Source of the DNA: a virus | Virus record (IMG/VR): IMGVR_UViG_3300036859_000864 | Span: 1 to 64,000 of that record | DNA: 64,000 bases | Strand: one strand, 5' to 3' | Shown: piece after piece, positions 34-18,000 of the stretch | Numbering within the stretch: the stretch's first letter is position 1 | Layout: each line of letters opens with the position of its first letter | Made by a program: the position numbers and the translations under genes | Notes under the pieces: generated by a model | Seen by the model: only the letters and a program-made list of their open reading frames with translations | What the model was told of the DNA's origin: nothing | Database searches by the model: none

Positions 34-330
34 GTGAACGAATTCCTGATCGTCTCGGCGCTCATCGGCACAACTCTTCTCGTTGTGCGCGGCACCATCT
101 TCGAGCCACTCAGACGCCTCTGGCCCGCGCTCTTGCGATGCTCTCAGTGCTTCGGCACCTGGGTAGGCATCGCTGCGAGCGCGAGCGGTCTCGTGTCGGT
201 GGGGCGTGGCCGAATCATCGACGCGCTCATCGTCGGAGCGGCGACAAGTTTCTTGTCGCTGCTGGCCGATGCTGTACTCTTGAACTTGCTCGGAGATCCA
301 AACGAGCAGAATTCCGAAAACAAGCCCTGA
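34..330 (+). CDS. DUF1360-like small membrane protein
   Basis: Hydrophobic segments and LLRCSQCFGTWVG (CxxC-W) motif. Confidence 0.6.
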   Translation: MNEFLIVSALIGTTLLVVRGTIFEPLRRLWPALLRCSQCFGTWVGIAASASGLVSVGRGRIIDALIVGAATSFLSLLADAVLLNLLGDPNEQNSENKP

Positions 331-358: not shown

Positions 359-1291
359 ATGCGCAAACGTCTAAAGAACCTCAAGAACAAAAGTGGCCAC
401 AGCGAGAACGGCGCACCTCGCCAGATGCTAGACGAAGCGCTCTACCGAGAGCGCCAGTCAGGGATCCCGTTCGACAGCGAGTATTCGGGGTGGAGCAACG
501 GATCTCGTCCGCGAGATCAAGCCATCAGCCTGAGAACCAGAGCTGGGACAAGAGGGCCCGACGGGCCTACCCCTCCTCCTACGCTTCTGGTCGATCTAGG
601 ATCAGCAGGATTTTTCGCCATCTTCGCACAGTCCGGCATCACGACGACGGGCGGATCCACCGTCAACGGCGACATGGGCATCAACCCCGCCGCCGCCGCC
701 AGCATCACGGGTTTCGCGCTCGCGCTCGACGGCGGAGGCCAATTCTCGACCTCCTCTCAGGTATTCCCAGGCACCCCCGCGCTCCCTTACCCGCCGCAAC
801 TCGGTCAGGTATTCGCGCCGGACTACGCAGTACCCACACCGGCCAAGGTAGTTCTAGCCAGCGCCGATCTGATCACCGCGTACAACGATGCCGCCGGCCG
901 TGTCCCGAATTTCACCGCAGCTGGCGCCGACATAGGCGGGTTGACGCTCGAGGCAGGCGTAGCCGGTGTCTACAAATACACCGGTGCGAGCAGCGTCACA
1001 TCGGCACCTCTGACGTTGCACGGAACCAACCCCGGCGACGCCATCATCATTCAAGTCGCCGGCACGTTCGACGTTCATCAGAACATAGTTTTGACGGGAA
1101 CTCTCGCAGGGCACCCCGAGAACGTCTACTTCGCGGTGGCGGGGCAAGTCACCATCTTCGGAGGTGTCACGATCAACGGAGAGTTCCTCGGCGCGACTGG
1201 CATCGCCATGCAAGCAGGATCGGTGCTCAACGGTCGAGCGCTGGCGCAGACTGCGGTGACGCTGATCAGCAACACAATCAACGAGACGTAA
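359..1291 (+). CDS. Ice-binding protein (DUF3494) with basic N-terminal extension
   Basis: VDLGSAGFFAIFAQSGITTTG..VNGDMGINPAAAASITGF; DLITAYNDAAGR; NGRALAQTAVTL. Confidence 0.9.
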   Translation: MRKRLKNLKNKSGHSENGAPRQMLDEALYRERQSGIPFDSEYSGWSNGSRPRDQAISLRTRAGTRGPDGPTPPPTLLVDLGSAGFFAIFAQSGITTTGGSTVNGDMGINPAAAASITGFALALDGGGQFSTSSQVFPGTPALPYPPQLGQVFAPDYAVPTPAKVVLASADLITAYNDAAGRVPNFTAAGADIGGLTLEAGVAGVYKYTGASSVTSAPLTLHGTNPGDAIIIQVAGTFDVHQNIVLTGTLAGHPENVYFAVAGQVTIFGGVTINGEFLGATGIAMQAGSVLNGRALAQTAVTLISNTINET

Positions 1292-1359: not shown

Positions 1360-2106
1360 ATGAGCTACCTCATCGGCAAAGGGCGCTACGCCCGGGAAAC
1401 CTATCCGGAAGCTCCGCGATCCGGCGCGGCTCCGGCTCCGAGCGATTTGGGATTCGGGCTATACGCCGCAAGGCCCGCGCCGGGGAACCTAGGGCATCTG
1501 TGGACGTCGAGCGACGGCGCCACGATCTTTCAAGACGACGGTACCAACTGGCGTCCCTTGATCGGCGGACGCCCCGGCACGCAGGTGCCGCTCGTTGCAG
1601 CATTTCCAAACGTATACGGCGCTGCGACGTGGACCGACTCAACGGGGACCGTCTTAGTGCGCGCGCCTGGCCTCGGGACTCAACAGATGAATGCGATCAC
1701 GGAGGCCATTCCCGGAGCATCGTGGAGCGCAACGGCGCACCTGTCCTCGCTCGCTTTGGAGTCGAATGACCTGTTTGGAGCCGGTATCGTAGCCTCCGAC
1801 GGTACAACTTTTCTGTCCTGGAAACTCGACGCTTCGGGATTCTCCGGCGTGCATCTGACGTTGAGCACGTGGGATACGACCACGGGCCCGATCACCACAT
1901 TGAGCGGCGCAAATCAAGGAGCGGGAAACGGACTGTGGCTTCGTCTCGAGAGTGACGGAGCTGACGTCACCGCGAGCACATCTCCTGATGGTGTCAACTT
2001 TTCTCCTGTGTTCGTCGTTGCCGATCCAGGTTGGACGCAGGTGGGTTTTATGGCCGATAACGAGTCGGCCGGCATTGCGGTGTTTGATAGCTGGGAACTC
2101 TCGTAG
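1360..2106 (+). CDS. Putative receptor-binding/decoration protein: IGKGRY N-peptide plus ConA-like domain
   Basis: Shared N-peptide; GLYAARPAPG...DDGTNW fibre-type motif; LWLRLESDG..VTASTSPDGVNF beta-sandwich. Confidence 0.65.
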   Translation: MSYLIGKGRYARETYPEAPRSGAAPAPSDLGFGLYAARPAPGNLGHLWTSSDGATIFQDDGTNWRPLIGGRPGTQVPLVAAFPNVYGAATWTDSTGTVLVRAPGLGTQQMNAITEAIPGASWSATAHLSSLALESNDLFGAGIVASDGTTFLSWKLDASGFSGVHLTLSTWDTTTGPITTLSGANQGAGNGLWLRLESDGADVTASTSPDGVNFSPVFVVADPGWTQVGFMADNESAGIAVFDSWELS

Positions 2107-2134
2107 TGGGGAATTTTCTTTTTGAGAGGGCACT

Positions 2135-3580
2135 ATGAGTCGAATCATCGGCAAAGGTCGTTACGCCACCGAAACGTACCCGGAAGCTCCGCGCATCAGC
2201 GGTTCGCCGTCGGGCGCTTCCCTCATTCCGATCCATTACCAGTTTTGGGTCGGTGTTCTCGACGTCCCTCCAGCTACTCCGAACGGCTCGATCCAATCCC
2301 CATTCCCAACATTGCAGGAATCGCTCACCGCCGGCGCAGCGCTCCCGGCAGGCGCGATCATCGACTACTTCCTCGCGGACGCGGACTACACCGCGGAGGG
2401 GTCTCTCGCGATCCCATCCGGGAAAACCACGCGCTTGGTGAGCATGTGCGGCGGGACCACCGTCGGAGACGCCACCGTTTCGGCAGAGGATCCCGCTACC
2501 GGATTTTCACTCTTGGACGTACTCATCCCCGCAGGCGTTGCGATAACGGGCGTTGTAGGCGGGAACGTACTCCTGGAGCTTTTCTACGCCGAACCGGAAG
2601 GCAACGGCATCGGGAATCTCGTAGAGACACTCCCCGCCGGGCAACTTCAAATCAAGGCGACCAACGGCGCGATCACATCGATAGTCGCCCCAAACTGCAA
2701 TCTCATCCAATCGAGTGGAACGAACTATCCGAACGGCATCAACGCACCGAACTGCGACTTCAACGCGACCGACGGAAACGTCTTCGAAGACGTTTCGGTT
2801 TTCACTTACTCGTGCGTCGACTGTGTGATCGGCGGAGACGCCGAAGCCGGCGTCCAGTGGACAGTCGTCGCGGTGTCCACAGGAAGCGTAAAAGGGTTCA
2901 ACTCTTGCCAGTTCAACGGATTCGGAGATTTCAACGGCCCCGTCGGCTCGTTCACAACGGACATCGACTCGGCCTACTCGGCTCGGGCTCAAGCGTGGTC
3001 TCTTTCAGGTGGAGCCACGACAGTGTTCAACGCGAACATCGGTCAAGTCCTCACAGTAAACTCAAACGGCTTTCCGGTATTCAGCGCCCCAGCCGTTAAA
3101 GGATTCACGCTCGCGTCGGGAGGTGCTCTCTTCGGCGCTACAGGCACGATCCCCGCATTCGATATTCGACAAGGAACCTCGTTCCCGATCGCTGTGGTAG
3201 GCGACGACATCGACAAAGTGGAATTTTGGAACTTCCCAGCGCGCGCCTACACGCTCGGTACTGACGTAACCTTCGACGTGTTTTGGTACGCAGACGCGGT
3301 TGTAGGAAACGTAAATTTCGAAGGCGCGCTCGGAGCTCAATCGCTCGCAGACACGAACGACATCGAAACGAAAGCGCTGGCGGCACCCGTATCGGTAGAA
3401 CAAGCCGTCAACGCCAACACGCGCGCCTTGAACCGCACTCGAATCGTTTTCACAGGTGCGTCTCTAGATGGGCTAGATACGAACGATTTCGTGGCTCTTC
3501 GTCTGGCCCGCCGAGCCGCTGCCGGCGCCGAGATGGCCGGGAACCCCCGCTTCATTTACGGTATAGTGGACTGGCCATGA
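2135..3580 (+). CDS. Putative spike protein: IGKGRY N-peptide, beta-helix, C-terminal jelly-roll
   Basis: Shared N-peptide; NGSIQSPFPTLQE beta-helix cap motif; repeated I(V/N)APNC(N/D). Confidence 0.6.
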   Translation: MSRIIGKGRYATETYPEAPRISGSPSGASLIPIHYQFWVGVLDVPPATPNGSIQSPFPTLQESLTAGAALPAGAIIDYFLADADYTAEGSLAIPSGKTTRLVSMCGGTTVGDATVSAEDPATGFSLLDVLIPAGVAITGVVGGNVLLELFYAEPEGNGIGNLVETLPAGQLQIKATNGAITSIVAPNCNLIQSSGTNYPNGINAPNCDFNATDGNVFEDVSVFTYSCVDCVIGGDAEAGVQWTVVAVSTGSVKGFNSCQFNGFGDFNGPVGSFTTDIDSAYSARAQAWSLSGGATTVFNANIGQVLTVNSNGFPVFSAPAVKGFTLASGGALFGATGTIPAFDIRQGTSFPIAVVGDDIDKVEFWNFPARAYTLGTDVTFDVFWYADAVVGNVNFEGALGAQSLADTNDIETKALAAPVSVEQAVNANTRALNRTRIVFTGASLDGLDTNDFVALRLARRAAAGAEMAGNPRFIYGIVDWP

Positions 3581-4308
3581 GCTGCGCCGGCGACGGAGAT
3601 GTGGGTAACTCGACGAACACGAACACCAATCTAGGTGCGTTCGACGGACCGTTTTCCGTGCTCGCGCGCGTGTGCCCGTCTGGAGACACGTTCGGACCCG
3701 GAGCAGACGGCTTCGCTACCTGGTTCGACATCGGGGCCAACGGCGGTGGCGGTAATTTCGATTGGCAGTTCTTCTTCAACATCGCTCCCGACAACCACGA
3801 GTTGCACTACCTGAACTACACGAGCGGTGCGGTGACCCTCGATGTAGTCGTGGGCGTACTCAGCGCTATCGGCATCTCTACCGTATGCATCACGCACGAC
3901 CCCGCAGGCGCCGGAGAAACGAAACTGTACCTAGCGCCGCCAGGAGGCGCGCTGACATTGATCGGAACATTCGTAGACGCCTACACCGCCCCGGGAGGGC
4001 TCGGGAACCTCACCCTATTCAATTTCTTCGGGGTCGGTACTGAACCCCTACATGGCGAACTCGTCGGCATCATTCAATGGGCTGACGTGCTCACCATCGA
4101 AGAACTCGCCGTTCAGATGAACTCGATCAAACCGTGCGTACGCCTAGACGCCATCGTGAACGGCAACGGGCGCTTCTACCCGATGCTCAATGAAGGCCGC
4201 GTAACCGTCGACGAGAGCGGCAACGATTTCGACACGACGTTGGCGGGCACGCTTCCTACATCCACGCTCATGCCGGCCGTCCCGTGGGGCAGCTCACCGT
4301 ACCTGTGA
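3577..4308 (+). CDS. LamG/ConA-like domain protein
   Basis: ATGA overlap with upstream stop; FSVLARV, VCITHD, LHGELVGIIQWADVLT..EL, VDESGN. Confidence 0.65.
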   Translation: MSCAGDGDVGNSTNTNTNLGAFDGPFSVLARVCPSGDTFGPGADGFATWFDIGANGGGGNFDWQFFFNIAPDNHELHYLNYTSGAVTLDVVVGVLSAIGISTVCITHDPAGAGETKLYLAPPGGALTLIGTFVDAYTAPGGLGNLTLFNFFGVGTEPLHGELVGIIQWADVLTIEELAVQMNSIKPCVRLDAIVNGNGRFYPMLNEGRVTVDESGNDFDTTLAGTLPTSTLMPAVPWGSSPYL

Positions 4309-4315
4309 GGCACCT

Positions 4316-4876
4316 ATGGCAAACCGCGCATCCTGGAAAACCGTCGCGATAGGCAGCGCCGTCATCGGCGGGATCGGCGCCATTCTACTCACCAGCCGCA
4401 AAGCAGCGGCCTCGTCGTTGCCTTCATCGACGGTACGGCGCGTAGCGTTGATCGGAGACTCGTACGCGGTCGGGTTGGGTCCGGAGCTCCGAAAATACTT
4501 CCCAGAGTTCAAGTACGAGGGGGTCGTTGGAACGAACACTGCGCAATGGGCATCCCATTCGAAAGCGTGCGGCACCTGCGGGGACTGGCTCACGACCTTC
4601 AAACCCGACGTCGTACTTGTCTCACTTGGAGTCAACGACGGGACAGCGCCGAACGCCAGGAACTACAACGACATCGTGAGCGCGCTGCACGGAATCGGAG
4701 CTCGAGTCGTGTGGATCGAACCGCCGGCAGCCGTAAATACCCCTGCGGTACGCAGCACTATCGCTTCGCTCGGCGTGAGTACCGTATCGGCTCCAACGTT
4801 GGTCATGGCCAACGCGCTGCATCCTGCGAGCTACAACAGGTGGGCGCAAGAGATCGCGCAAGCGGTACTCCAATGA
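4316..4876 (+). CDS. SGNH/GDSL hydrolase with N-terminal membrane anchor
   Basis: VALIGDSY, VVLVSLGVND, ALHP blocks; N-terminal hydrophobic helix. Confidence 0.85.
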   Translation: MANRASWKTVAIGSAVIGGIGAILLTSRKAAASSLPSSTVRRVALIGDSYAVGLGPELRKYFPEFKYEGVVGTNTAQWASHSKACGTCGDWLTTFKPDVVLVSLGVNDGTAPNARNYNDIVSALHGIGARVVWIEPPAAVNTPAVRSTIASLGVSTVSAPTLVMANALHPASYNRWAQEIAQAVLQ

Positions 4877-5112
4877 TCTACTTCAACAGGCGCCCAACAA
4901 TCGGATTCGGCGACGAGCACGTCGATCGCCCTCTCCCACCCCTCGAGCTCCGAACGGCTTACACCGTGAAGGGCCTCGGCATCGGCGCCGGCGGCCTTCT
5001 CGGGTACCTCGCTTTCGGGCCCATCGGAATGATCCTCGGAGGGGGTGCCGGCTGGTACGCGGGAAACCGCGCCGCCATCAAAGCCGAGAAGGACTTCACG
5101 AGCAATGGCTAA
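4873..5112 (+). CDS. Glycine-zipper membrane protein
   Basis: ATGA overlap; GLGIGAGGLLGYLAFGPIGMILGGGAG. Confidence 0.6.
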   Translation: MIYFNRRPTIGFGDEHVDRPLPPLELRTAYTVKGLGIGAGGLLGYLAFGPIGMILGGGAGWYAGNRAAIKAEKDFTSNG

Positions 5113-5824
5113 CCTCGATTGGCCTGCGTTCGGCAACGCGCTCTGGCTCGTGAGCGATCGTCTCGGCATTCGTCCTGAGTGGCAGCTTCCAGTCATCTAC
5201 CTGGAAACGGCCCACACGTTCGATCCGGCGGTCATGAACTCGGGAGGGTGCGTGGGGCTCAACCAATTCTGCCCTTCGACGTACTCCAGATACGTACACG
5301 TGCCCGTCAACCAGTACCGCACATGGACCGCCAGCGCGCAGCTCTCCGGACCGATACTCGCTTACTGGCGCGATGCGCTCACGCACGGGCCGATCGATTC
5401 TGCCGCGCGTTTGATGTTGGCGCAATTGGGCCAAGGGTTGCTCGCCACCACGCCGGCCATGAACAGCGTGGTGTTCTCCGCACCCAGCGCCGAGTACAGC
5501 CAAAACGCCGGCTTCGACACGACACGAAAGGGCTATTTCACACTTCAAGATCTGGCAGACGTGTTGGCGAAGCAAGCGCGCGCGCCGGAGGTTCAGGAAG
5601 CAATCGGACGTGCGTACGCCATGCGCCCGAACGAGGTACCGAGCGAGGGCTACACCTTTTCGCTCGTAGACCCGCCTACAACTCGGAGCGGCGGGGCCGT
5701 CGCAACACTCGTCTTAGGCACGTTCATGGCCGCGGTAGGGTACGGAACATACAAGTTACTCGGCGCCTTGAAAACGCGGCCTGAGAGATCAACCCTCCCG
5801 CCGCCGGCGTTCAGGCGCACATGA
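5105..5824 (+). CDS. Lytic transglycosylase (SLT-like) with C-terminal TM helix
   Basis: VIYLETAHTFDP..N...VGLNQFCPST resembles the catalytic Glu and GLxQF motifs; C-terminal hydrophobic helix. Confidence 0.75.
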   Translation: MANLDWPAFGNALWLVSDRLGIRPEWQLPVIYLETAHTFDPAVMNSGGCVGLNQFCPSTYSRYVHVPVNQYRTWTASAQLSGPILAYWRDALTHGPIDSAARLMLAQLGQGLLATTPAMNSVVFSAPSAEYSQNAGFDTTRKGYFTLQDLADVLAKQARAPEVQEAIGRAYAMRPNEVPSEGYTFSLVDPPTTRSGGAVATLVLGTFMAAVGYGTYKLLGALKTRPERSTLPPPAFRRT

Positions 5825-6255
5825 ACAAGCCGCTCCTCTGGTTTTCCGTGGGAAGCGCCGCCGCGGGGGCCGCACTCCTCCTCTGGAAAAGGGCGGGGGA
5901 GCGCACCACCCCGCCCATTCCTGCGGGGGAGCCCTCCAAGACCTACGGCGAGGCTACGAAAGTCACGCTCGCGGTACCTGCGGGTTGGCGCCGCGTGACC
6001 GGCGCCGAAGTGTCAGCTCTTCCCGAGCTTGGATCTCAGGCGAGCGCGCTCATGAACACGCCGGGTTTCACGTCAATGCAGTACGGTACGCTCACCCCGT
6101 TCGTCGGAAGTGACGGGAAGACGTACGCAACATGGATCGAACAGCACTACCACGAGCCCGGTGGCTCGGCGAAGCCGTGGGGGCTACACCATGGGGTAAC
6201 AGTGCTCGCTCAGGCGAGCGCCTCCACGCTCGCTGACGAATGGGGAATCGCATGA
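5821..6255 (+). CDS. Hypothetical membrane-anchored protein
   Basis: Overlap-coupled ORF with N-terminal TM segment. Confidence 0.6.
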   Translation: MNKPLLWFSVGSAAAGAALLLWKRAGERTTPPIPAGEPSKTYGEATKVTLAVPAGWRRVTGAEVSALPELGSQASALMNTPGFTSMQYGTLTPFVGSDGKTYATWIEQHYHEPGGSAKPWGLHHGVTVLAQASASTLADEWGIA

Positions 6256-6836
6256 CTCTTCGCCCGAACATCCTCACCCGACACACCGCGCTGGAAGTGA
6301 TCTCTGCGTACTCGGTAGCTCACGTTCGAGTGTTCTCGATTCCCATCACAGGCACGTTAGCCGAGTTGCTCACCGCGTGGAGCGCGTTCGAAACTTGGTT
6401 TTGGAAGCTCTGCCACGACGACAACCTCACGAACATGCGTGGCATGTGGCAGGGGAACGGAACGACGTTCAAGGCGAGTGAGATCGACGCCAACGGCAAA
6501 GAGATCTTTTTGCCGCCAAGCGCAACGAACGTCTTCCGCGCCTACGTCGAATCTCAGGGCGTGCCGGCGATCGTGGCTTCCGCAGAAGACAACATCCGTT
6601 TCGTAGGCACAGCGAGCAACCCCAGTGTGCGCCCGAACCGATTCCAAGAAGCGTGGGATGCGGCGCAGCGCGGAGACGTCGAAGGTTTCGTGATGGGGCT
6701 CGCGGAGCCGAAGCTTCCGGGTGTCGAGCACGTGCCTGGGTTTTTCACCGCGAACCCGCGCGTGTATCTCGCCGGCGTGCAGCATTGCCTGGACGTGCTC
6801 AGGCCGGACTTCGATGTGTACGAAAGAGCTCCGTGA
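6252..6836 (+). CDS. GH73/FlgJ-like peptidoglycan hydrolase
   Basis: WSAFET..DNLTNMRG, FRAY, GFFTANPRVY (YATDPxY-like). Confidence 0.6.
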   Translation: MTLRPNILTRHTALEVISAYSVAHVRVFSIPITGTLAELLTAWSAFETWFWKLCHDDNLTNMRGMWQGNGTTFKASEIDANGKEIFLPPSATNVFRAYVESQGVPAIVASAEDNIRFVGTASNPSVRPNRFQEAWDAAQRGDVEGFVMGLAEPKLPGVEHVPGFFTANPRVYLAGVQHCLDVLRPDFDVYERAP

Positions 6837-7027
6837 TTGCGCGTTTGATGTGCTTGCTGCTCGGGCACCAACTAGACAATCTCGAGAAGGTTGAAGGCGT
6901 GCAAGCACCCGTCTACGTGAGCCACGGCAAGTGCGCTCGCTGCGGCGTCCCTGTCATTACGGTCCGTGATCTTCGAGATGAAGAATCTCAGGCAGCCGAC
7001 GACGAACGTTCAGGTCGGTTGCAGTAA
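6833..7027 (+). CDS. Small Cys/His protein (DUF1660-like)
   Basis: GTGA overlap; CLLLGH...CARCG. Confidence 0.45.
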   Translation: MIARLMCLLLGHQLDNLEKVEGVQAPVYVSHGKCARCGVPVITVRDLRDEESQAADDERSGRLQ

Positions 7028-7576
7028 GCTCGTGAGCGGCTGAACGAGCCCCGCACCGCTGAGACGCCTGCATTGAATGCCGTTCGATGCAGGAAGAGTG
7101 GTCACCGTTGTCGTTCCTTGACTCAAGTAGGTCAATCGAACCACCGGCGCTGAAGGCAACGCTACCGAGAACAAGGTTCCGGCGCTGAAAATCTCGCCTG
7201 CGCCTCCTGCGGTCACGTTGAAAGCGCATGAGACCGGAGGCCCTGAACCTCCGTCGATGTAGTTCCAAGTTGAGCCGCCGTCCAAACTCACTTCGACTCG
7301 CACGACAAGGCTAATCGCTCCCGCTTCGGAGCTAGCGAGTGTGAAATCCACCTCGCCGTCTAGTACATCGTCCGCGTCCCAATCGGTGAACGTGATGACG
7401 ACGTTGCCGCTTACGGCTGCCGGTATCGGCGTGAAGACACCCACCGGATCCAGATTGCCAGAGGCGGTGTACGCGGTTCCGTATTGCAACAGCAGCGGGT
7501 CGGTGCCGCCGGCCGCAGCGGCCTTCTCAGGGTACGTTAAGGTCGCGTACCTGCCTTTGCCGATGATGTGTCCCAT
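7010..7576 (-). CDS. IGKGRY N-peptide protein with beta-sandwich domain
   Basis: MGHIIGKGRYATLTYPE; beta-rich remainder. Confidence 0.65.
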   Translation of the reverse strand: MGHIIGKGRYATLTYPEKAAAAGGTDPLLLQYGTAYTASGNLDPVGVFTPIPAAVSGNVVITFTDWDADDVLDGEVDFTLASSEAGAISLVVRVEVSLDGGSTWNYIDGGSGPPVSCAFNVTAGGAGEIFSAGTLFSVALPSAPVVRLTYLSQGTTTVTTLPASNGIQCRRLSGAGLVQPLTSLLQPT

Positions 7577-14699: not shown

Positions 14700-15626
14700 T
14701 CATTCGACGAGCTCGGCAGCGAGCCACTTCGGATCTTCCGCCTTCGCCCGATCGACGACGTCGGCCATCACCACGGTGAGCCCCTTCAAGTCGATCGGCG
14801 TCAGCTTCTTTTGCTTGAACGCTTTCCCTCCGACCTTCGGCGTCGCCGACGTGTCGAGAGTCTCGATCGGAAGAATGCGTACGATCTTCGAGATCTTGAG
14901 CCACTGAGGACTCCACACGTACGGAGCGCCCACCTCTAGCGTTGGGAGGACGTCCGCCAGATCTCCCTCGAACCCCTTGTCGCTCAACCAGTACTTGAGC
15001 GCCTTTCGTTCGTGCGGACCGTTCATCTGGAACGCGAACACACACTCGGTTTGGTTGAGAGCCTTCTTCGAGATCTCTTGCGGGCGCTGCGAGATGAAAC
15101 TGATCCCGATACCGTGCGGGCGACCCTGTTTGGCTAGCCTCTGGAACTCGTGAAGCATTTGCTCTTCGCCGCGTTGGCAATTCTCGGGAACGAAATCCTG
15201 GCACTCTTCGAGCACCAAATGCACTGCACTGGGCGCCGCCTTCTTTCGCTGAAAGAAGCGTTTCGCGAAAGCTGTCGCGAACCGGGTTCGTTCGGCGTCT
15301 AGCATCTGACTTACGTCGAGCACCACGCTGATTCCGCGATCAACGATCAGGTTGGCTACGAGCTCACCAGAAGCCGGTTCGAGCGGGATGTCTCCGTGAA
15401 GACCACCGAACACCGGAATCTTGAAAGCTTTCGGACCGAGACGGAGACCTGCCCACCCGCCGGATCCATCCAAGACGATGACCTGCGCTTTGATGCGCAG
15501 CATTTGCTCCACCATGCGCTTGCAGCCAAATGTCTTGCCAGATCCAGTCCGGCCTAGGTACGCTAGCTTTTGCGTGACCGCGTCAGGGGGCAGAGACAAC
15601 TCGGTGGAGATTCGAAGCTTTTTCAT
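14700..15626 (-). CDS. HerA/DUF87-like P-loop ATPase
   Basis: Walker A GRTGSGKT, Walker B LVLEE, QGR..GI...ISQRP. Confidence 0.85.
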   Translation of the reverse strand: MKKLRISTELSLPPDAVTQKLAYLGRTGSGKTFGCKRMVEQMLRIKAQVIVLDGSGGWAGLRLGPKAFKIPVFGGLHGDIPLEPASGELVANLIVDRGISVVLDVSQMLDAERTRFATAFAKRFFQRKKAAPSAVHLVLEECQDFVPENCQRGEEQMLHEFQRLAKQGRPHGIGISFISQRPQEISKKALNQTECVFAFQMNGPHERKALKYWLSDKGFEGDLADVLPTLEVGAPYVWSPQWLKISKIVRILPIETLDTSATPKVGGKAFKQKKLTPIDLKGLTVVMADVVDRAKAEDPKWLAAELVE

Positions 15627-15640
15627 CAGATCAACCTTTC

Positions 15641-16880
15641 TCAAGTCACTGGCTCCTGACGTCGACCATCTACGACCCACCGCACTTCGCGCACGCTAAC
15701 GCCGGCGAGCCCGATCAAAGACGGCGCTGTAAGGTCGCCCCCAGAGACGCGCCAGATCCTACGCTCCCAATAGACCACGATGCCGTGATCCGGGTGCACT
15801 CCAGCATCCCAGTCGCCCCGCTCATGAAGCGTTCGAGCGACCAGGAAGCGCGCAAGATCTACGGCGACGACGCTCATTGCTCTCCGAGAACCTCTTTCAT
15901 CCTCACCGAACCGACGGCCTCGCGTATCTTGCCGATGTCTGCTTCCAGCTTGCGGTTCGCGATTTGACTCTGCTCGAAATGCCCGCGGGCCGCACTGAGC
16001 TGATCCTTGAGACGCTTGTTTTCGTCTTCGAACGTGGCGATACGCTTTGCGCCTGCCTCGAGCGCATTCGTCGCTATCTTGTGCGCCTCGTACGTCTGAT
16101 TCAGAGATTCTTTCAAATCGTTTACTTCGCTCTGCTTACGCGCGAGCGCATCGTCTGTACTCATCGTCATGACGAACATCGGCTCCCGAAGCACCAGAGG
16201 CTTCGTCACCGAGTGCGTGCGGTTTCCGTACTGCCCACCGAAACCGTTCTCGTCGTCGGCCGTCGTTTCGACGCCGTGTTCCATGCGATCGTTGTAGATA
16301 ATCTCAGCGATGCGGTAGCCCTCCAAGCCGCGGCCTTCGACCTCGTTCGCGTGCACTACGATCGCAACGTCTAATTTCTTATTTGAGCTCATTGTTGATT
16401 TTCCTTTCCGTAAACTGCTGGCGCGGCAACCAGTACCAGGTCAACAAGGCTTGGCCGCAGGAACCTCGACACGTCGAGAATTCGACGTACGGCGTGCCGT
16501 CATTCCAGAAACCAACGTGAGCTGAGATAGCTCCGTCTTCTTGCAAGTTCATCAGAACGCGCTCGAAAGATGTCGCGTCACTCTTAGCCATCGTCGAGCT
16601 CCGGTTCGTAGAAGTGCTTCGTGACCGGGCACTTTGCCGCCCGTGCGCGCGACCGGTGAAATTGAACGCCGCAGCTCTTGGACGTCGCTGCTCGAGGCGC
16701 ACACGGCATCCCGGGGAGGGCGAGGCACGTCTTGCACGAGTACGAGAGCACGCGAACCACGTACTGTGCGAAGGTCTCCTTGTTCTTGGCGAGCAGGCGC
16801 TTCATCTCGTTCGAGGGTTCGAACTCGATCGCTCGCTCGACGCAGCGTACGAATATGGGGGCTATTGTTTGATCGTTCAT
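15641..16880 (-). CDS. Run of hypothetical genes (15641-15877, 15874-16392 coiled coil, 16379-16591, 16584-16880 Zn finger)
   Basis: Overlapping ORF chain; CKTCLALPGMPC...HRSR. Confidence 0.55.
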
Positions 16881-16911: not shown

Positions 16912-18000
16912 TCATTTCTTCTCCGCCCCCTTCTCACTCTGCCTAGCCAGTGCTTTGTTGAGCAGCCCGGGGCCAGCCGCATCTTGAAGCCCCGCGCGTC
17001 GGACGTACTCGTTGACTTGGTTCACTCCGTGGTGGCCGGTAGACGCCGCGATGTCCAACGCACTTTCGCCTAGCCTGTGCGCGGTCGTGACGAACCCGCT
17101 GCGCAACGAGTGGCCGCCAAACTCCGTCGAATCCAACCCGAGCTTTTCCACGTAGAACTGCACGCGGCGCGATACCCCCTCGGGCGCGAGTGCAGCGACC
17201 ATGACTTTGCCGGCCGCATCGACCCCCCGAAACACCGGACCGCTTTTGATCTCCGAGATCTCGAGCCAACGCCGCAACGCCGAAACAGGGCAGTACCGCT
17301 CGTCGTCGGACGGCGTCATCAGCACCACTAGGCCCTTGCCGGCCTGGTCTGCTTTGCTGCGAGGGATCACCCACCGGATCCCCTCTTCAATCTCGGTGAA
17401 ATGCTCGACGCACGCGGCTGTAATTTCGCTACGACGTCGCCCACTAGACCAGCCGACGAGGAGCATCGCTCGATCTCTAACCCCGCGAACGTCGTCAGTT
17501 ATCTGGTTGCAGACCTGGAACAACAACGCCTCTTCGGTCGTTCCGGTAGCTTCGAGCGCGCGCTTCTGTTTCTTCGGCGCCTTCCCCAGCGTCCTCGCGA
17601 ACTTGTCGCGCACGCTTTCGATAACCGGGTCTTTCCACGGACTTAGATGACCTGACTGCTGGTGACTATGACAGATCGCCGCGAGTGTGCGCATGAGCGA
17701 GCTGTACCCAAGCGGCCCCTTCGGTGTGCGTTTCGGGACGTCCGCCTTGTCTCGCCCGCGTTCGGCGAGCTCTTGCAGATAACCACGCAGAACACGCGGC
17801 TCGGCCGGCATGGGGCGAACCCCGTGGCGTGTGCACCAAGAGACGAAGCAGGCCAGCTCGAACTCGTAGGCCCGCCTGGTATTGGCCGGGACGGCCTTGT
17901 CGGCCTCCTCTTGCGCGCGTTCGTCGAGCGCCACCAGCTCGCTTTGCGCCGTGGTGATCGCGTCGGACGCCGCCGACTTAGTTATCTGGATCTCAGCCAC
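16912..18000 (-). CDS. Tyrosine recombinase, Cre-like
   Basis: RDRAMLL..GRRRSEI, RSKADQ, HSLRSG, TGH, EY. Confidence 0.92.
   Translation of the reverse strand: MAEIQITKSAASDAITTAQSELVALDERAQEEADKAVPANTRRAYEFELACFVSWCTRHGVRPMPAEPRVLRGYLQELAERGRDKADVPKRTPKGPLGYSSLMRTLAAICHSHQQSGHLSPWKDPVIESVRDKFARTLGKAPKKQKRALEATGTTEEALLFQVCNQITDDVRGVRDRAMLLVGWSSGRRRSEITAACVEHFTEIEEGIRWVIPRSKADQAGKGLVVLMTPSDDERYCPVSALRRWLEISEIKSGPVFRGVDAAGKVMVAALAPEGVSRRVQFYVEKLGLDSTEFGGHSLRSGFVTTAHRLGESALDIAASTGHHGVNQVNEYVRRAGLQDAAGPGLLNKALARQSEKGAEKK

Follow-up and report, generated by a model that had tools for sequence, protein, structure and literature searches.

A conserved N-terminal peptide as a candidate virion-attachment tag for fibre-type proteins of uncultivated soil viruses

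That a short peptide can dock a protein on a virus particle is already known from adenovirus and tailed phages. The tail of the adenovirus fibre, with its motif FNPVYPY, binds between penton-base monomers (PMC8156859), and the first 29 residues of RBP2 of the Klebsiella podophage KP32 are needed for incorporation into the virion and also function on foreign bodies (PMC13352976). In the P5 spike of the tailless, membrane-containing phages PRD1 and PR772 (Tectiviridae), an N-terminal anchor is combined with a collagen-like motif and, at the C-terminus, a knob; the anchor, a 124-residue jelly-roll domain, is a homologue of the penton protein P31 and forms part of the penton itself (PMC6750898). 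Among cellular structures, BclA and BclB require a short N-terminal motif for incorporation into the Bacillus exosporium and carry a collagen-like stalk and a globular head (PMC4674009). Here we describe a 17-residue N-terminal peptide, hereafter the tag, on several proteins encoded in and around the first 64 kb (64,000 nucleotides; the window) of IMGVR_UViG_3300036859_000864, a single 111,461-bp contig of an uncultivated bacterial virus from soil. We think it probable that this peptide is a shared virion-attachment tag for interchangeable fibres.

Copies, position and conservation of the tag

Three open reading frames (ORFs) of the window begin with the tag: 1360-2106 on the plus strand, starting MSYLIGKGRYARETYPEA; 2135-3580, also on the plus strand, starting MSRIIGKGRYATETYPEA; and 7010-7576 on the minus strand, starting MGHIIGKGRYATLTYPEK. 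The initial annotation had singled out these three, and all are real, but they are not the full set. A six-frame scan of the whole genome located two more, at genome positions 108948 (L003 13949) and 110136 (L003 15137), at the head of proteins of 390 and 411 amino acids (aa). Searched with a hidden Markov model (HMM) of the tag, the genome yields five significant matches and no more (E 1e-15 to 5e-11; next best, E 0.02), three within the window, where the 1360, 2135 and 7576 proteins score 54, 52 and 48.5 bits, and two just past the circular junction. A sixth gene, at genome position 108253 (L003 13242-13745), encodes a 167-aa protein whose start, MSEFVGRTGSHRVYSYPE, is unscored by the HMM; because its body is homologous to canonically tagged proteins of relatives (P0021, P0040, P0064 and P0092), we regard it as a decayed copy. 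All six genes form one cluster spanning the junction. The pattern IGKGRYA..TYPE, with up to two substitutions, turns up four times when the genome is translated in six frames and never in 100 shuffles, confirming that the peptide shared by the three window proteins is not a chance resemblance. The circularity of the genome follows from a 128-bp overlap of the contig ends, and IMG/VR classes the record as having direct terminal repeats and being 100% complete. The DNA is present in three soil metagenome sequencing runs, of which one probably gave rise to the record, and a search of sequencing runs listed no RNA run that holds it.

The five genome copies conform to M-x-x-[IV]-I-G-[KR]-G-R-Y-A-x-E-T-Y-P-E, a pattern of 17 residues, each 3-4 residues past the start codon, and the consensus for the lineage is M-S-[HR]-[IV]-I-G-R-G-R-Y-A-R-E-T-Y-P-E. 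A profile built from 22 tags and searched against 1.84 billion representative proteins retrieved 232 protein clusters at E<=1e-3. In all 150 listed hits, on proteins of 27-1082 aa, the match begins at residue 1 or 2, and the 135 representatives of at least 100 aa fall into 69 BLAST groups or components. As the initial annotation had anticipated, then, hits are strictly N-terminal and lie on diverse adhesin-type bodies of related viruses. Degenerate tag patterns fetched seven loci in six IMG/VR contigs with 20 further tagged ORFs, in which the conserved I-G stands 3-4 residues past the start codon (in one case 0 by scan). Among 30 tags in 24 related IMG/VR loci, 26 are at an ATG or GTG start and four have their true start 1-2 codons further in. 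Related complete genomes of 75-125 kb contain one to five tag matches each, and the tag or a variant is present in every related complete genome searched. One variant, with a one-residue insertion (G-x-R-G-R), heads collagen-like proteins of 1730-1875 aa (L019 14294, 1875 aa, MAHIAGSRGRVVHGETYPD; L020 15405, 1730 aa, MGYITGRRGRYHGETYPD); G006 and G009 retain only the T-Y-P core.

Gly6, Arg9, Tyr15 and Pro16 are invariant in the profile hits, and Gly8, Tyr10, Ala11, Glu13 and Thr14 are nearly so. Residue 2 is always small (S, G, A, T or P in 138 of 138), so that under the usual rule the initiator Met is probably cleaved. Over the 12 residues past Tyr-Pro, Gly, Ala, Ser and Pro make up a fraction of 0.66, as against 0.38 in the rest of the protein, which bears out the linker originally proposed from the window proteins. 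When tags within the genome are compared in pairs, 9-15 of 18 residues agree but just 28-42 of 54 bases do, and 3-7 of the identical residues in each pair are written with different codons. Selection therefore acts on the peptide and not on the DNA, as had been argued from these synonymous differences.

The tag has no recognizable relatives in the collections searched. Neither Pfam nor PHROG has a family that matches it, querying the PDB by sequence and by profile returned nothing meaningful and no solved structure, GenBank phage records gave no match, and its motif strings do not occur in the searched paper texts; the first impression that it belongs to no named family thus stands. So does the view that it is no Sec or Tat signal since, as read from its sequence, it is not hydrophobic and has neither a twin-arginine nor a lipobox pattern.

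Bodies behind the tag and their neighbours

Beyond the tag, the proteins diverge. No tagged pair within this genome has a BLAST match past the tag, and the three window proteins show no BLAST or jackhmmer similarity among them past residue 22. The initial annotation was right in this sense to call their bodies unrelated, but the shaft of the 2135 protein proves by jackhmmer to be distantly related to a tagged beta-helix family outside the window, that of the 411-aa protein (t411-type). The first protein (1360..2106, plus strand, 248 aa) consists of the tag in codons 1-17 (1360-1410), an Ala/Pro/Gly linker and a body predicted to be a ConA-like beta-sandwich. Pfam DUF1349 is a marginal match (E 0.033) and phrog_19068 a firmer one (E 1.9e-7); the Atlas model matches DUF1349/GH43_C2 ConA-like clusters over residues ~78-248 with template-modelling (TM) scores of 0.55-0.66, which supports the ConA-like assignment made earlier. 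The third protein (7010..7576, minus strand, 188 aa) has the tag, an Ala/Gly linker and a small body, and a tagged orthologue with 79% identity is encoded in a related 84-kb virus (L006 10001-10561). The −10-like box once described for its gene was not recovered: with a simple sigma-70 scan, nothing promoter-like came up upstream of 7576.

The second protein (2135..3580, plus strand, 481 aa) combines the tag, a Ser/Gly/Pro linker, a shaft and a C-terminal head module of ~165 aa. Its description as a beta-helix holds only by way of that remote kinship with a protein whose fold was modelled. A collagen-stalked tagged protein encoded by a related virus (L006 17581-18705) has a C-terminus 46% identical to residues ~295-460. 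In the public protein collection the gene is called 59 codons downstream of its true start (P0271), and the resulting 422-aa product lacks the tag. A word-indexed search with residues 1-40 found no candidate because the database gene call omits these residues, and such late starts may cause automated annotation to under-count tagged proteins.

The relative through which the 2135 shaft can be interpreted is the 411-aa protein. Its AlphaFold2 (AF2) model, built with 21 diverse relatives, reaches a predicted local distance difference test (pLDDT) score of 87.3 and is a right-handed parallel beta-helix of the tailspike type. The best structural match is the tail fibre of Agrobacterium phage 7-7-1 (VIA-align Z 17.4, root-mean-square deviation 3.0, 226 aligned residues), and others include alginate and pectate lyases, Kp32gp38 (Z 14.2) and the tailspikes of CBA120 and Acinetobacter phages; Foldseek agrees weakly with these tailspike-type matches. 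A fold shared with receptor-binding and depolymerase proteins is no proof of function. Residues 1-25 of the model fall below pLDDT 50, which indicates that tag and linker are disordered in the monomer.

Elsewhere in the lineage the bodies are equally varied and appear to have moved. At least five Gly-X-Y repeats occur in 21 of the 150 listed tagged proteins, in relatives and not in the three window proteins, and Pfam recognizes Collagen in nine tagged proteins, Ice_binding in two and BclA_C in one. Together with the beta-helix and ConA-like evidence, these assignments agree with the fibre, spike or adhesin character first proposed for the bodies. The 1360 body recurs behind a collagen stalk in P0144 and again in P0013 (520 aa), whose N-terminal part resembles the 2135 protein; judged from such sequence relationships, bodies are shuffled between shafts. 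In one relative, a 28-codon ORF with a truncated tag (MSRIIGNGRYASETYT...) lies directly before a full tagged gene (L007 5468-5554, equivalent to L012 17242), and looks like a recombination scar within the tag-coding DNA.

Three untagged genes accompany the tagged ones in the window. The ATG of a 243-aa gene (3577..4308, plus strand) overlaps the stop codon of the 2135 gene (ATGA). Its product has no Pfam or PHROG hit, and a homologue adjoins the gene with the 2135-type C-terminal module in L006, so that the two are inherited together; the 243-aa protein is likely a partner of the 2135 fibre, either a tip or an assembly factor. An ice-binding-like beta-solenoid protein (359..1291, plus strand; PF11999, E 7.5e-45) is encoded within the fibre gene cluster, and the same domain occurs behind the tag in two proteins of related viruses. 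Finally, a conserved 98-aa membrane protein (34..330, plus strand) is encoded between tagged genes and has copies, 47-78% identical, at the same place in related viruses.

Virion context and competing explanations

The tagged cluster adjoins a set of genes that may encode the capsid, an arrangement that favours a role in the virion. The conserved order is an Arg-rich core protein, proteins of 441, 201 and 297 aa, small membrane proteins, wall-binding membrane proteins and then the tagged genes, and the stretch from the core protein through the 441-, 201- and 297-aa proteins to the membrane proteins is kept in L008 and L010. At E<=1e-5 no fewer than 433 homologues of the 441-aa protein exist, of which the 120 listed are 71-88% identical and lie on contigs of up to 159 kb. 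Homologue number, identity and spread over contigs fit a major capsid protein, and we treat it as the major capsid candidate. It has no match in GenBank phage records, and the 441-, 201- and 297-aa proteins and two tagged proteins gave nothing meaningful when compared with the PDB by sequence and by profile. In Atlas, the 201-aa protein falls only into unnamed viral clusters, and PM2 P2-like rows scored 0.76, which is chance level. The N-terminal arm of the 441-aa protein (L003 7453-7520) reads S-I-[IVL]-G-R in most relatives, faintly like the I-I-G-R of the tag. PRD1 P5 and P31 share N-terminal sequence for co-assembly. We discounted kinship between arm and tag, as so short and variably placed a match is probably due to chance.

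How the tag might work can be sketched as follows. A tagged protein would consist of the tag, a flexible Gly/Ala/Ser/Pro linker, an optional shaft (a collagen-like triple helix or a parallel beta-helix) and a variable head, whether a ConA-like lectin, an ice-binding-like solenoid, a BclA/C1q-like knob or another fold. The tag, disordered alone, would take up a fold, probably that of an added strand or hairpin, on binding to a single conserved socket in the particle. The same capsid could thereby bear several kinds of host-binding fibre or spike, six of them in this virus, and recombination downstream of the conserved tag or inside it could supply new heads. That the tag hardly varies is matched by the strong conservation seen in the capsid-module proteins. 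The docking role put forward in the initial annotation is thus supported as regards strict position and diverse bodies, while binding itself, the identity of the socket, a single shared site rather than many, the penton as partner and presence in the virion are conjectural parts of that proposal.

The peptide might instead serve assembly, being recognized by a common viral chaperone or nucleating fibre trimerization, with no need for contact with the capsid. Many tagged proteins are collagen-like, stalks of that kind require something to nucleate them, and the disorder of the tag in the monomer model would suit such a function. Directly upstream of the tagged genes, moreover, lies the gene for a conserved, Cys-rich protein of 62 aa (motif C-C-G-Y-K-R-C-P; L003 13757-13942, genome 108756-108941), which stays beside the tagged cluster in two relatives in which that cluster lies away from the capsid genes; the protein is possibly a fibre assembly factor or adaptor. 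Yet beta-helix, ConA-like and small stalk-less bodies carry the same tag, and the 62-aa protein is absent from one complete relative with four tags. We consider a purely assembly-related tag unlikely, noting that chaperone and anchor roles are not exclusive.

A second explanation concerns the type of virion. If this were a very divergent tailed phage, the tag could be a tail-fibre adaptor that docks on a baseplate or primary fibre in the manner of the conserved peptide on secondary receptor-binding proteins of the KP32 or K1-5 type. The tailspike-type beta-helix, with Kp32gp38 among its structural neighbours, would accord with this, as would the Uroviricota label that Atlas gives to neighbouring clusters and the match of one ATPase, a 326-aa protein (14700-15680, minus strand), to phrog_2666, annotated 'terminase large subunit' (E 2.5e-20). 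By Pfam, however, that ATPase is of the HerA/FtsK type (DUF87, E 3.8e-7; AAA_10; TrwB_AAD_bind), the packaging ATPase kind of membrane-containing tailless viruses, and we take it as a candidate genome-packaging ATPase of the membrane-virus type. A six-frame search of the complete genome found no match to TerL_ATPase, Terminase_6N, Phage_portal or the HK97 Phage_capsid, and no tail, portal or head PHROG was seen on the ~39 proteins scanned, a subset of the ORFs from which unscanned or very divergent tail genes could escape. The structural module, in addition, is rich in membrane proteins. With tailed-phage hallmarks undetected and a HerA/FtsK-type ATPase present, the virus looks like a member of a new tailless group, and a tail-fibre adaptor seems to us improbable. 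The genome also encodes phage-type replication genes and a tyrosine integrase (16912-18000, minus strand; PF00589, E 3.9e-7; phrog_1, E 3.6e-14), so the virus may be temperate.

Third, the tag could be a capsid-targeting signal or propeptide that steers proteins into the particle during assembly, after which a viral protease would cut it off. Internal proteins of T4 carry an N-terminal capsid targeting sequence, and a short N-terminal peptide on unrelated proteins, often ending in Glu, would resemble it. A protease may even be at hand in the morphogenesis module, as a transglutaminase-like (papain-fold) enzyme encoded just before the Arg-rich core gene (L003 4817-5494, genome 99816-100493; PF01841, E 1.1e-6) is possibly a maturation protease or cross-linker. 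Against this, the bodies belong to types that act outside a capsid (fibres, lectins and tailspike-like enzymes); Glu follows Y-P in only 49 of 150 proteins, so no conserved cleavage site is evident; and a flexible linker suits a tether better than a cleavage site. We give targeting and removal of this kind little credence. Cross-linking of the tag by the transglutaminase-like enzyme was also considered and rejected, as the tag has no invariant Lys or Gln.

Finally, a role away from the virion, with the tag serving as a modification site or as an address for the host envelope or for export from the cell, is highly improbable: nothing specific speaks for it beyond the membrane-anchored, wall-active enzymes also encoded in the region, the tag lacks the export-signal features noted above, and the gene for the lineage's capsid candidate turned up in only one short contig of a metagenome-assembled genome (MAG) among ~185,000 species genomes, which leaves no pointer to a cellular system that reads the tag. 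That search of GTDB species genomes returned this 5.8-kb contig and one spurious 15-residue hit. The contig (L035, JBGPOW010000264.1) was assigned to a 'Candidatus Binatia' MAG; its version of the capsid candidate is 82% identical, and the contig is either a hint of the host or a binning artefact.

All four of these explanations fit the body types and gene context less well than an attachment tag does. Several observations nevertheless weigh against attachment. The tag has decayed on the 167-aa member of the cluster, and some relatives keep little of it beyond T-Y-P, so its exact sequence is not indispensable everywhere. The AF2 model of the 441-aa capsid candidate, built with 32 homologues, has a pLDDT of 39 and is unusable, and the capsid type is deduced from genes, namely the undetected tailed-phage hallmarks and the HerA/FtsK-type ATPase. 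The lineage itself is known from genes alone, so that the tagged proteins are placed in the virion by inference and the socket is postulated. A single complex prediction of the 201- and 297-aa proteins with a 30-residue tag, run without controls, scored 0.00 and is evidence in neither direction.

The likely number of fibres also bears on where an attachment tag would dock. Were sockets confined to the 12 vertices, very few places would be open to six or more competing fibre types, and a repeated site on the shell seems for this reason at least as plausible. We tentatively suggest, as a possibility well short of probable, that the tag docks not on the twelve vertices but on such a repeated site, formed by the 441-aa major capsid candidate or by a membrane-linked minor protein, in a large tailless bacterial virus of the jelly-roll type. 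If so, a single 17-residue plug would let collagen, beta-helix and lectin fibres cover the particle as a dense mixture, a general and portable display system of a sort so far described only for giant eukaryotic viruses and spore surfaces.

Comparison with known docking systems

If the tag is an anchor, it marks the host-recognition proteins of a widespread lineage of uncultivated soil viruses with genomes of 60-160 kb and labels at least 232 protein clusters that otherwise lack annotation. Its distribution shows how these viruses exchange adhesin modules, and its 17 residues could be used to search for the capsid socket and in pull-down or display work.

Among described systems, the Klebsiella podophages KP32 (gp38), KP34 and K11 offer a close parallel in protein build, with a short N-terminal peptide that precedes a beta-helix enzyme and is dispensable for its folding and activity (PMC13352976). 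Here, likewise, an N-terminal peptide stands before differing bodies, at least one of which has a receptor-binding or depolymerase-type fold. In KP32, however, the partner is a primary tail fibre's branching domain in a tailed phage, and each virus has one peptide-bearing protein. In our virus the peptide is new and is carried by five or six proteins per genome, and no tailed-phage hallmark was detected (TerL, portal and HK97 capsid across the whole genome; tail PHROGs on the proteins scanned), the branching domain itself not having been among the targets of the search.

The adenovirus fibre resembles the tagged proteins in another respect. An extended N-terminal tail with an aromatic/Pro motif fixes a trimeric fibre, composed of tail, shaft and head, non-covalently to a jelly-roll capsid, and a Tyr-Pro core is found here too. 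There is no sequence relation: the tag consensus, IGRGRYARETYPE, shares only the Tyr-Pro pair with the FNPVYPY-type motif. Adenoviruses, moreover, have one and rarely two fibre genes, in contrast to one tag on many unrelated bodies.

The PRD1 P5 spike provides a likeness in architecture, since a collagen-like motif followed by a head occurs in tagged proteins of relatives, though not in the three window proteins. The anchors differ, as the penton-like jelly-roll of P5 has its counterpart here in a 17-residue peptide that is disordered in the model and passes at once into a linker. BclA, although one tagged protein matches its C-terminal Pfam domain, belongs to a cellular spore structure and uses another motif, and is an analogy only. 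Against this background, the peptide, its breadth (at least 232 clusters, with several clients per genome) and the virus lineage are new to the literature and phage databases searched. If the tag is an anchor, a docking principle familiar from adenovirus and tailed phages would extend to what appears to be a new tailless group, with many more clients per virion.

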